From Eledone cirrhosa (lineage: Eukaryota): 64,000 bases of DNA. Below are positions 58,542 through 62,999 of this stretch, piece by piece (within the stretch, counting starts at the first letter, position 1; the number at the start of each line of letters is the position of its first letter). Made by a program: the position numbers and the translations under genes. The stretch is taken from NCBI GenBank assembly GCA_964016885.1, contig OZ024743.1:261764001-261828000 (forward strand). Direction: 5' to 3'. Under the pieces are notes generated by a model. It was given only the letters and a program-made list of their open reading frames with translations, did not search any database and was not told where the DNA came from.

Positions 58542-59468
58542 GAACCAGCAGTACTAGTGTGGATGCCTTGCAGTTTGTTGTGGTACCTGCAACATTATTG
58601 TGGCACCAGCAGCACTATTGTGGTTGCTTTGCAGTTTGTTGTGGAACCAGCAGTAGTATTGTGGTTGCTTTGCAGTTTGTTGTGGCACCAACAGCACTAT
58701 TGTGGTTGCTTTGCAGTTTGTTGTGGCACCAGCAGCACTATTGTGGTTGCTTTGCAGTTTGTTGTGGCACCAACAGCACTATTGTGGTTGCTTTGCAGTT
58801 TGTTGTGGCACCAACAGCACTATTGTGGTTGCTTTGCAGTTTGTTGTGGCACCAGCAGCACTATTGTGGTTGCTTTGCAGTTTGTTGTGGCACCAGCAGC
58901 ACTATTGTGGTTGCTTTGCAGTTTGTTGTGGCACCAACAGCACTATTGTGGTTGCTTTGCAGTTTGTTGTGGCACCAGCAGCACTATTGTGGTTGCTTTG
59001 CAGTTTGTTGTGGCACCAACAGCACTATTGTGGTTGCTTTGCAGTTTGTTGTGGCACCAGCAGCACTATTGTGGTTGCTTTGCAGTTTGTTGTGGCACCA
59101 GCAGCACTATTGTGGTTGCTTTGCAGTTTGTTGTGGCACCAACAGCACTATTGTGGTTGCTTTGCAGTTTGTTGTGGCACCAGCAGTAGTATTGTGGTTG
59201 CTTTGCAGTTTGTTGTGGCACCATCAGCACTATTGTGGTTGCTTTGCAGTTTGTTGTGACACCAGCAGTAATATTGTGGTTGCTTTGCAGTTTGTTGTGA
59301 CACCAGCAGTAATATTGTGGTTGCTTTGCAGTTTATTGTGGCACCAGTAGTACTATTGTGGTTGCTTTGCAGTTTGTTGTGGCACCAGCAGTAGTATTGT
59401 GGTTGCTTTGCAGTTTATTGTGGCACCAGTAGTACTATTGTGGTTGCTTTGCAGTTTATTGTGACACC
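58542..59468. repeat. 41-bp minisatellite, ~22 copies
   Basis: Unit gcaccagcagcactattgtggttgctttgcagtttgttgtg. Variants accumulate at both ends. Confidence 0.95.
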
Positions 59469-60076
59469 GCACTAGGGTGGTTGCATTGTGCTCTATCAGA
59501 TGAAACAGTACTCACTACATTATCTTCATGCATTCATGTAAACAAAATAGTGGACAAAAAGAGAGAGCAATGACAGAAGAAGATCTTGGGTGAGTGAATG
59601 AAGAGAGCAAGAATATGGTGGAGAGACTGGGTGATTGGGGGGAGAAGTGGCAGAAAAATGTATCACTGAGGAAAGTGTCCTTTTAGGCACAATAAATTAT
59701 GTACCGCAAACCAATGGAGGTGCCTCTCTGCAGCTGTTGAAACTGATAGAAAAAGCAGCCAAACCTCTCTTAAACCACACTTCTGTTTAAAAAATTAAGG
59801 ATACAATAGATATACTATACAATAGTAACAGCTAGAACTCCTTTGACCACAGGTCTGCTTAATAAGAACTGAATTGGCCTAAACAACAATAATAATGATT
59901 AAGTACCAGTAATATATCGTTACTCTCTTAAATGAACCATATCTACTATTTTTGTGGCTTTGTGCTCATGTATTGTTATTGCTTAGCTCCAGGTCAGCCC
60001 AGATCGTGACCTATGATTAAAGGCATCCCATCACGTACATCAGGAATTAACTAGTTTTCAATGTTTTTCCTTTTAT

Positions 60077-60141
<65 letters not shown>

Positions 60142-60221
60142 GATAAGCAGAACAAGTAAAATTCAATCAATTTTTCAAAATACATTAAAAAATATAATAT
60201 AAATATTTACCTCTTCTAGTG

Positions 60222-60303
60222 GCCCTTACTGATCAGTTTCGCTTTGTAAAACCTCATAAATCCGATGGATTCATGATGGAAAACCAAAGCTCATCAGAGA
60301 AGC
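60222..60303 (-). ncRNA. Type I hammerhead ribozyme (unit 1)
   Basis: Reverse complement of 61806-61887. TCATCAG at 60291-60297. Confidence 0.82.
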
Positions 60304-60697
60304 ATTTTCCCATCCTAGGGCTAAACGTCCCAGGAACGACAAAATATACAACCTCCTGCCAGCTAATAAAGGTCGTAAAAGTGACCCGTATGTAAACTGG
60401 ACCGAAGTAAAAGCGGGAAAATCAAAGACTTGCTGTCTACAATTACTACTAAAGAAATAGCAGCCTAGTAAAGCAACAGATTTGTTCTCAACGGACGGAG
60501 AAAAAGGTATAAGTTAATATGTCCAGGGATACTAGGTACCCCTAGAAATACATAGGTTGTCTATGATTCAGGGTTGTTCAATGGTGTTAATTTGATACAC
60601 CAGAACTTTAATATTAAGATAAGCAGAACAAGTAAAATTCAATCAATTTTTCAAAATACATTAAAAAATATAATATAAATATTTACCTCTTCTAGTG

Positions 60698-60779
60698 GCC
60701 CTTACTGATCAGTTTCGCTTTGTAAAACCTCATAAATCCGATGGATTCATGATGGAAAACCAAAGCTCATCAGAGAAGC
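60698..60779 (-). ncRNA. Type I hammerhead ribozyme (unit 2)
   Basis: TCATCAG at 60767-60773, same sequence as unit 1. Confidence 0.82.
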
Positions 60780-61182
60780 ATTTTCCCATCCTAGGGCTAA
60801 ACGTCCCAGGAACGACAAAATATACAACCTCCTGCCAGCTAATAAAGGTCTGAAAGGTCGTAAAAGTGACCCGTATGTAAACTGGACCGAAGTAAAAGCG
60901 GGAAAATCAAAGACTTGCTGTCTACAATTACTACTAAAGAAATAGCAGCCTAGTAAAGCAACAGATTTGTTCTCAACGGACGGAGAAAAAGGTATAAGTT
61001 AATATGTCCAGGGATACTAGGTACCCCTAGAAATACATAGGTTGTCTATGATTCAGGGTTGTTCAATGGTGTTAATTTGATACACCAGAACTTTAATATT
61101 AAGATAAGCAGAACAAGTAAAATTCAATCAATTTTTCAAAATACATTAAAAAATATAATATAAATATTTACCTCTTCTAGTG

Positions 61183-61265
61183 GCCCTTACTGATCAGTTT
61201 CGCTTTGTAAAACCTCATAAATCCGATGGATTTTATGATGGAAAACCAAAGCTCATCAGAGAAGC
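61183..61265 (-). ncRNA. Type I hammerhead ribozyme (unit 3)
   Basis: TCATCAG at 61253-61259. Small change in distal stem II. Confidence 0.8.
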
Positions 61266-61805
61266 ATTTTCCCATCCTAGGGCTAAACGTCCCAGGAACG
61301 ACAAAATATACAACCTCCTGCCAGCTAATAAAGGTCTGAAAGGTCGTAAAAGTGACCCGTATGTAAACTGGACCGAAGTAAAAGCGGGAAAATCAAAGAC
61401 TTGCTGTCTACAATTACTACTAAAGAAATAGCAGCCTAGTAAAGCAACAGATTTGTTCTCAACGGACGGAGAAAAAGGTATAAGTTAATATGTCCAGGGA
61501 TACTAGGTACCCCTAGAAATACATAGGTTGTCTATGATTCAGGGTTGTTCAATGGTGTTAATTTGATACACCAGAACTTTAATATTAAGATACCTTTTTC
61601 TCCGTCCGTTGAGAACAAATCTGTTGCTTTACTAGGCTGCTATTTCTTTAGTAGTAATTGTAGACAGCAAGTCTTTGATTTTCCCGCTTTTACTTCGGTC
61701 CAGTTTACATACGGGTCACTTTTACGACCTTTCAGACCTTTATTAGCTGGCAGGAGGTTGTATATTTTGTCGTTCCTGGGACGTTTAGCCCTAGGATGGG
61801 AAAAT

Positions 61806-61887
61806 GCTTCTCTGATGAGCTTTGGTTTTCCATCATGAATCCATCGGATTTATGAGGTTTTACAAAGCGAAACTGATCAGTAAGGGC
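61806..61887 (+). ncRNA. Type I hammerhead ribozyme (inverted unit)
   Basis: gcttct-CTGATGA(61812-18)-GCTTTG...tcatgaatcc-atc-ggatttatga...CAAAGC-GAAA(61869-72)-CTGATCAG-TA|agggc. Intact core, palindromic stem III, predicted GUA cleavage after 61882. Confidence 0.85.
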
Positions 61888-62073
61888 CACTAGAAGAGGT
61901 AAATATTTATATTATATTTTTTAATGTATTTTGAAAAATTGATTGAATTTTACTTGTTCTGCTTATCTTAATATTAAAGTTCTGGTGTATCAAATTAACA
62001 CCATTGAACAACCCTGAATCATAGACAACCTATGTATTTCTAGGGGTACCTAGTATCCCTGGACATATTAACT

Positions 62074-62108
<35 letters not shown>

Positions 62109-62110
62109 AC

Positions 62111-62320
62111 ATGAGCCCCAGGTTCACTTGGGGGTAACCACAGTAAGTAAGGTACTCAATACATTAGTAGAGTGTAAAACTCAAATTTAATATAGAAATG
62201 GCTTCTACAGGACTAGAACTGTTTCATTCAAAGGAAGGCATCAGGAAAACCATTTCCTGGTGATTTCCTTTGAATGAAACAGTTCTAGTCCTGTAGAAGC
62301 CATTTCTATATTAAATTTGA
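62111..62320. mobile_element. Hammerhead-type element with 140-bp fold-back
   Basis: Inverted repeat 62181-62320. tttc-CTGGTGA-tttcctttgaat-GAAA-CAG-ttctagtc-CTG-TA|gaag on +; the other arm has core CTGATGC. TT-bulged hairpin at 62154-62173. Confidence 0.7.
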
Positions 62321-62999
62321 TACGCATGTGTGTGTATATGAGAGAGAGAGAGAGAAATTGCATACATAAAAACGAAATATGTGAGACGAATGAACAGAAG
62401 CATCTATCTTTGTCATCATCCACCAATTTTATGCATAAGGGTGGTAATGCTTAATATTGAGCCCAGGTTACATGATAACAACCCCCCAGAAAGATTCATG
62501 AGACAACACAGAAACATACAGTGGATAACAAGGGAGTGTCTGTTGAATAGAAAGAACAGGATACAGCATAGACAAGTGTAAATAGTAATGCTCGAAGGAG
62601 GGAAATATTATGACTTTCATTAAAAAAGAGGAGAGAGTGAATGTGAGATAGAGAGCATACATAAATGCATGTATACATCACGTTCCCCACTATTGACCAC
62701 ATCCCCCACACCAGTATATCCCCTCTCCCCATATACTAATCAGCTACCCCAACCCCTTATTCATTCCTTACCCCCTTATCTATCTCTCCATTTCTCTCCC
62801 ACCCTATTGACCATATCTCCCATACCACTATATTCCCCCATCTCCCCATTACACTAATTGGCCACCACTTACTCATTGCCCTGCCAAATCACCACATACA
62901 CCTATAACTACATACATATCTCCCTCTCCTATTGCTTGCCCTCCCCGTAGCTGAGAGAGCTCTACAGTTGGATCTGTGATCGGCAACCTTTCAAATAAT

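Follow-up and report, generated by a model that had tools for sequence, protein, structure and literature searches.

A young non-coding hammerhead retrozyme family in Eledone cirrhosa with two fixed 3' ends and Penelope-like insertion features

Background

Non-coding, AT-rich tandem units that carry a type I hammerhead ribozyme and are dispersed as monomers to multimers characterize the animal non-LTR retrozymes described by Cervera and de la Pena (2020; PMC7229834) and by Li, Clavereau and Pollet (2026; bioRxiv 10.64898/2026.07.22.740005). In the passages of the two papers considered here, Penelope-like elements (PLEs) are proposed as helpers and circles as templates for tandem cDNA. The same passages state that most invertebrate retrozymes cleave efficiently (PMC7229834) and that one of nine Xenopus retrozymes cleaved in vitro (2026 preprint).

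The endonuclease-bearing PLEs (Arkhipova et al. 2013, PMC3846280; Craig et al. 2021, PMC8557442; Frangieh et al. 2024, PMC11167929) possess an ORF and show 5' truncation, partial tandems, a head-to-head inverted arm, a tail of 30-40 nt at one end only, two start sites for reverse transcription (RT), AT-rich or (TA)n targets and a hammerhead upstream of the end. In the in vitro work on an anole PLE, as described in parts of PMC11167929, both strands of AT-rich DNA were cut and extended, RT started at two internal sites bounding the tail, the enzyme was predicted to form a dimer, and unprocessed RNA was used and preferred, the hammerhead not being needed. Circles have already been proposed as templates for PLE insertions longer than one unit (Cervera and de la Pena 2014, PMC4209133, in the passages considered), and PMC8557442 names as the next task how the inverted repeat and tail of PLEs originate.

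The window analyzed here is a 64-kb stretch (64,000 nt) of the Eledone cirrhosa genome, in which an initial annotation had described a hammerhead retrozyme locus. The retrozyme class and each single feature of the locus are already known. At 485 nt its unit exceeds the 170-400 nt RNAs of PMC7229834 but is well within the limits of 51-972 bp given in the 2026 preprint, and its long, two-part stem II is unlike that of the animal retrozymes in the published passages considered. Insertion ends, inversions and per-array haplotypes, mapped here, do not appear in the passages of either paper considered, and in the titles and passages covered by our literature search, drawn largely from open-access main texts, we found neither counts of end pairing nor maps of retrozyme insertion ends. 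The family shares the truncations, partial tandems, inverted arm, one-ended tail, paired start sites, targets and hammerhead position of the endonuclease-bearing PLEs, but it has no ORF, its tail is 101 nt long, and in both of its arms a small unit can be repeated over several turns. We conclude, with somewhat better than even confidence, that at the window locus a young non-coding hammerhead retrozyme was inserted once, by PLE two-site priming and probably on circular RNA.

Methods

We read 80 family loci, made up of the 39 best hits to the monomer, 18 loci on contig C1 from the matches listed for the tail hairpin and 23 from those listed for a 43-nt word of the unit. These loci do not form a random sample, since the 39 are best hits to the full monomer and are biased toward loci that contain one. 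L148 and L149 were dropped as duplicates of L147, L067 (at a contig end, with many indels) was left out of the variant and length counts, and the final turn of L147 in the haplotype table is an alignment artefact. Automatic classing gave 29 inverted loci (25 A+B and 4 A+other, A and B being the 3' end sites described below), 46 single-armed loci (36 A, 9 B and 1 mis-extended) and 5 unclassed; inspection moved L159 and L168 to A+B and L147, L057, L161 and L179 to single A. Unit phases are numbered from 61591 (phase 1), which places the predicted ribozyme cut after phase 292 (A61882).

Results

Anatomy of the window locus

The locus consists of two arms of the same 485-nt repeat, placed head-to-head within a (TA)n tract (Table 1). 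Its left arm, in which the anchor atattaagata recurs at 60135, 60611, 61096 and 61582, is composed of units of 476, 485 and 486 nt and a further 11 nt (1458 nt in all); the first unit lacks 9 nt of a short direct repeat and the third bears a C>TT change. The earlier description of this arm as three turns plus 11 bp is thus correct in phase but not as a length of 3x485+11. The right half had been called exactly one 485-bp monomer, and it is: positions 61591-62075 are the exact reverse complement of left unit 2, with the exact match reaching 61590 and 62077. The halves are joined through microhomology as proposed, although the overlap is 3 nt (ATA) and not 2, and both outer ends merge into (TA)n as had been reported.

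Table 1. Features of the retrozyme locus in window coordinates
Feature	Position	Strand	Remarks
(TA)n target tract, left part	60092..60138	.	preceded by short (TG)n
Left arm	60135..61592	-	RNA sense on minus; 3' end at 60135 = site A, unit phase 384
Hammerhead, left unit 1	60222..60303	-	core start 60297; predicted cut after 60227; limits and cut by offset from right-arm copy
Hammerhead, left unit 2	60698..60779	-	core start 60773; predicted cut after 60703; by offset from right-arm copy
Hammerhead, left unit 3	61183..61265	-	core start 61259; distal stem II with one extra base
Inversion junction	61590..61592	.	head-to-head; 3-nt microhomology
Right arm	61590..62077	+	one 485-nt monomer (61591-62075) plus overlaps; 3' end = site B, phase 485-2
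Type I hammerhead, right arm	61806..61887	+	predicted cut after A61882
Stem I of right-arm hammerhead	61806-61811/61883-61887	+	core 61812-61818
Stem II of right-arm hammerhead	61819-61868	+	long, interrupted; GAAA 61869-61872
Stem III of right-arm hammerhead	61872-61881	+	palindromic
Site A within right arm	61964..61974	+	phase ending the left arm and 40/49 single-arm loci
101-nt tail between A and B	61975..62075	+	two hairpins, ~61979-62009 and ~62032-62069, conserved across sister families
(TA)n target tract, right part	62074..62099	.	

GC content is 0.35 over 60001-62000, and the unit is non-coding, its longest ATG-started frame being 34 aa and its longest stop-free stretch 83 aa. A tblastn search with a PLE protein from the same genome gave no RT or GIY-YIG match anywhere in the window, in agreement with the earlier statement that no PLE ORF is present; with no ORF in the unit and no such match in the window, the retrozyme family is not an autonomous PLE. 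Two other features adjoin the locus: a 41-bp minisatellite (21 copies, 95% matches) at 58598-59468, 650 nt to its left, and, just past the right (TA)n, a small near-palindromic element at 62116-62321, similar to sequence that follows PLE ends in L104 and L115.

A recently spread family and its sisters

The 43-nt word of the unit has 429 exact copies in the 3.0 Gb genome and its reversed control has none, so that the repeat is not due to chance; a pattern for the tail hairpin finds 905 matches, again with none for its control. Arms range in length from 24 nt to 20 turns. Over the part from hammerhead to tail, 14 relatives are 61-97% identical to the window copy, and the sister families retain sites A and B and the two tail hairpins. 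These sister retrozymes (L100:5500-6420 and L119-L138) form a wide set with units of ~459-490 nt, are as little as 61% identical and have the same two ends; CUGAAGA occurs among them as a core variant, and the stem III palindrome is imperfect.

Contigs from four public runs (at most two samples, from one study) contain both the head-to-tail join of units and site A followed by (TA)n, and those of runs X1-X3 have, at two diagnostic positions, only the letters of another subfamily, which would fit a burst of the window's subfamily that is very recent and polymorphic. The 485-base ribozyme-bearing repeat is real and recently spread. Judged from its sequence, the family shows every testable hallmark of a non-LTR retrozyme, the identity first given to it: intact hammerhead cores, short tandem units, GC below 50%, no coding capacity and many dispersed copies.

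The hammerhead

All four CUGAUGA...GAAACUGAUC cores of the locus are intact, at 61812 on the plus strand and at 61259, 60773 and 60297 on the minus strand, as the initial annotation had claimed for each unit. Across 12 family and sister sequences 93% of cells in the type I fold are paired and 11 of 24 pairs are changed on both sides; slid controls are 27-49% paired, and 0 of 500 shuffles reach the hammerhead score, a count that is not a probability, the sequences being related and the structure having been drawn from them. The predicted hammerhead structure is thus conserved across families that are only ~60% alike. Stem III comprises 3 bp and a tetraloop, is 100% paired and has one covarying pair, and stem II is ~50 nt long. 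The earlier label 'minimal' therefore does not suit this ribozyme. It resembles the minimal hammerheads of PLEs, in the passages of PMC4209133 considered, in its type I core and in a palindromic helix III region that permits dimers, but differs from them in both helices, helix III there being absent or vestigial. Rfam hammerhead models gave no match at the gathering score, nor any among the 13 matches up to E 10, and the long stem II is a likely cause.

The 10-nt stem III palindrome is predicted at 0 kcal/mol when folded alone and at -13.6 when paired with itself, which makes a dimer hammerhead possible. The 485-nt monomer is strongly structured (z -6.1), and its minimum-energy fold as a whole does not contain the hammerhead. 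The loop of stem II may form a pseudoknot with the 5' flank of stem I; 86% of cells there are paired and no pair is changed on both sides, a result that is suggestive only. We discarded a stem joining sites A and B, seen when the tail was folded alone, because it is absent from the consensus of 16 sequences and from the whole-monomer fold. Two arrays, L057:2056-3944 and L061:2050-4050, alternate with period 2, and both do so at unit position 242 in the stem II loop, with different substitutions; the base is not clearly paired, and a circle of dimer length or the duplication of two units could account for the alternation.

Two fixed 3' ends

In the 80 loci 3' ends fall at two fixed sites, A and B, 101 nt apart. 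The 31 inverted loci comprise 27 in which A is paired with B and four in which A is paired with another end (L032, L062, L067 at a contig end, and L181, which has a 21-nt fold-back), and neither A with A nor B with B occurs; the 49 single-armed loci end at A in 40 cases and at B in nine. Under an independent 50:50 choice, 27 mixed pairs out of 27 would have p ~7e-9. At all 99 A or B ends in the automatically classed loci (TA)4 lies within 25 nt, and site B moves by a few bases with subfamily sequence, tracking where the RNA resembles TA. The two circular permutations reported for the window locus are accordingly real as phases, but they are better described as two fixed start sites used throughout the family. 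The strictness of this pairing differs from the in vitro PLE study, which, in the portion considered, saw no strand difference in start site (PMC11167929).

The 5' ends, by contrast with these fixed 3' ends, are variable, spread over the unit and joined through short microhomology, and at 25 inversion junctions the overlap averages 1.56 nt against 0.72 nt for random pairs (p 1.5e-4). The same junction (phases 192/106) is found at L048:2319 and L143:2752 despite different haplotypes and arm lengths, so that some junctions must recur independently. In L1 twin priming both target strands prime, the inverted arms are likewise joined by microhomology, and the second start is a random internal match. 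Here the second start is fixed, the arms overlap in sequence, there is no poly(A), and the target is (TA)n. Rare haplotypes are common to both arms in L048, L052 and L065, which argues for a single RNA template for the two. In one further locus, L066:1060-1775, a retrozyme arm adjoins at its 5' end a GC-rich element that contains a tandem repeat of ~150 nt, has an end resembling the R2 target site of 28S rDNA and ends in (TA)n.

PLEs of the same genome

The genome is rich in elements that encode an RT with a C-terminal GIY-YIG domain and end in (TA)n, with 10,597 GIY-YIG candidates in our scan. The protein P0001 has the linker motif CX4CxxC, which PMC8557442 ascribes to Neptune and Nematis; it is a 938-aa frame in a tandem Neptune-like PLE (L099:2273-7551, period 4979) that also has an upstream frame and, close to the 3' end, a degenerate motif resembling a hammerhead. 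Several more PLE families that target (TA)n, with tails of ~34-65 nt, occur at L101-L118. The inverted locus L104, of an RT plus C-terminal GIY-YIG family, ends at two sites ~62 nt apart, and in a PLE-end family with a 34-nt tail, linked to an ORF family by 77-80% similarity only, the 20 B-ended loci include eight with an inverted partner, and every one of these partners ends no more than 9 nt from that family's own site A. PLE ends of the same genome thus follow the two-site rule, which supports a helper of PLE type.

No autonomous PLE sharing the 3' end of the retrozyme, of the kind that the initial annotation proposed to look for, was found: among 50 of the 10,597 GIY-YIG loci, blastn and nhmmer with a family profile gave no PLE end homologous to the unit, and the only match was the sister retrozyme in L100. 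No parent PLE was found among these loci to set beside the PLE helpers proposed for animal retrozymes. Neither the family loci nor 20 sister-family loci have an attached ORF, only neighboring PLE fragments. Within each PLE family sampled the copies are 93-99% alike, which picks out no single helper. The mixed arm of L170 was considered as a co-integration that might name the helper and was rejected, its PLE part being at most 95% like any of the 40 copies scored; as the retrozyme arm has few changes, the PLE part is taken to be an older neighbor. L166 also has an apparent mixed arm of retrozyme and PLE 3' end, and the 3' end at L166:1953-3391, which is rich in AC, bears a small hammerhead of the classical type and runs into (TA)n; relatives of it lie beside the retrozyme loci L140, L182 and L065.

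Discussion

Judged by its footprints, the retrozyme inserts as a PLE does, with fixed 3' ends, an optional tail, variable 5' truncation, inversion and a microsatellite target. The A+B pairing is the known pattern of the PLE tail, and the PLE ends of this genome obey the same rule; priming on both target strands at TA-like sites, as first suggested for the window locus, is therefore well supported, and together with the (TA)n ends it makes PLE two-site priming very probable. A Penelope-like, likely Neptune-type, reverse transcriptase-endonuclease would cut both strands of a (TA)n tract. Tandem transcripts would self-cleave and be ligated into 485-nt circles, the tail domain would be bound by the PLE protein, perhaps as a dimer, and each cut strand would begin at its own side of the tail, two cDNAs being primed at A and B on a single RNA, probably a circle. 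Each reverse transcriptase may then roll a variable distance before the two cDNA ends are joined head-to-head, and where one strand alone extends, its cDNA end would join the target and leave a single arm; long arrays probably expanded later in place too. Against the scheme stand the four inverted loci with one end elsewhere, a tail of 101 nt where 30-40 nt are published, and start sites that did not differ between strands in the anole study (PMC11167929). The most specific form of this scheme, in which a PLE enzyme dimer docks on the tail of one circular RNA and makes two rolling cDNAs that flank the tail and are joined head-to-head, we put forward tentatively, as a serious candidate that falls somewhat short of an even chance.

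The nature of the template is the point on which the strongest alternative turns. Of 104 arms 96 cross the cut site, 47 of them at least twice, and three 5' ends lie within 5 nt of the cut where 2.4 are expected, so that cleaved linear monomers are not the usual template and the choice lies between a circle and an uncleaved multimer. Were PLE two-site priming to act on an uncleaved linear multimer, the homogeneity of arrays would have to come from a few homogeneous donors and later unequal crossing-over. Some observations fit such an origin: one haplotype is common to 14 of 36 long loci, autonomous PLEs here form tandems too (L099), and repeated variant blocks in L054, L173+174 and L038 demonstrate duplication in place, which can also homogenize arrays. 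The anole PLE's preference for unprocessed RNA, the cleavage of only one in nine Xenopus retrozymes and a minimum-energy monomer fold that lacks the hammerhead likewise count against a circle. Yet 16 haplotypes account for the 36 loci that span 970 nt or more, every array being fixed for one of them, and for at least eight rare or private variants all units covering the position carry the variant (for example L058 15/15, L051 4/4, L065 5/5), which calls for repeated monomer bottlenecks; among the matches listed for 12 compared 5' flanks, moreover, no two share junction-adjacent sequence in register, and a linear multimer leaves the continued selection on the hammerhead unexplained. The haplotype-fixed arrays and the retained hammerhead, with its pairs changed on both sides, favor a circle, which we regard as the probable template, and we consider the linear multimer unlikely, though the most credible of the alternatives. 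That the inverted arm arose by self-priming or fold-back of one strand, as proposed for PLE inverted repeats (PMC3846280), would suit so highly structured a unit and accounts for the one 21-nt fold-back, at a hairpin, in L181. The junctions are not palindromic centers, however, 27 of the 31 loci have a second arm that ends at the other of the two fixed sites, and fold-back copying is excluded in L159, L163 and L168, where part of the B arm has no counterpart in the A arm, and in L143, where each arm has sequence missing from the other, so that as a general account it is very improbable.

The initial annotation had also proposed that rolling-circle RT halts on returning to its start and so leaves arms of integer turns, and the window locus (3.0 and 1.0 turns) and the 2.0-turn arms of L035 and L049 do look that way, as does the skew of arm length modulo 485 toward the first 100 nt of a new turn (26/66). 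When phases and lengths were tabulated across loci, however, the rule was not borne out: the 63 arms that reach one turn or more include five that come within 12 nt of a whole number (3.2 expected) and seven that do so within 25 nt (6.6 expected). For the 5' ends, the random lengths that the initial annotation had named as refuting its reading are thus what the other copies show. By length, four of the 63 are within 5 nt (1.4 expected), two of these being the window locus, which is the only one of the 31 inverted loci with both arms near-integer. A three-turn arm, furthermore, has passed its start twice, and decaying arm lengths, sampling and TA-like microhomology at A, B and phases 305-345 would likewise give the skew. 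We therefore reject the integer-turn rule for the family, leaving the halting mechanism barely tenable, and read the integer lengths of the window locus as a coincidence, helped by the TA-like character of A and B, which favors joining there. It is hardly conceivable, finally, that an error of assembly produced either the tandem or the inversion. The junction of the window locus was unseen in the contigs of the four public runs, but these carry the letters of another subfamily and cannot show absence; the three left units have distinguishing indels of their own, the same design recurs at 31 loci with different flanks, and the public contigs include the head-to-tail join and the ends from site A into (TA)n.

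Mobilization of animal retrozymes by PLEs and the use of circles as RT templates are published proposals drawn from co-occurrence, homology and RNA data, to which the present family adds a countable footprint of the insertion step in the strict A+B pairing, the single haplotype in both arms and the arms that cross the ribozyme site. Because it is young and has many mutually identical copies, it offers an unusually clean record of PLE-type integration, and its small, defined RNA with a conserved two-hairpin tail is suited to in vitro study of circle versus linear templates and of two-strand priming. If the most specific scheme, that of a PLE dimer docking on one circle, is true, the family would record in the genome both circRNA-templated insertion and a one-step origin for the PLE tail and inverted repeat, and the 485-nt unit would provide a self-contained substrate for testing.
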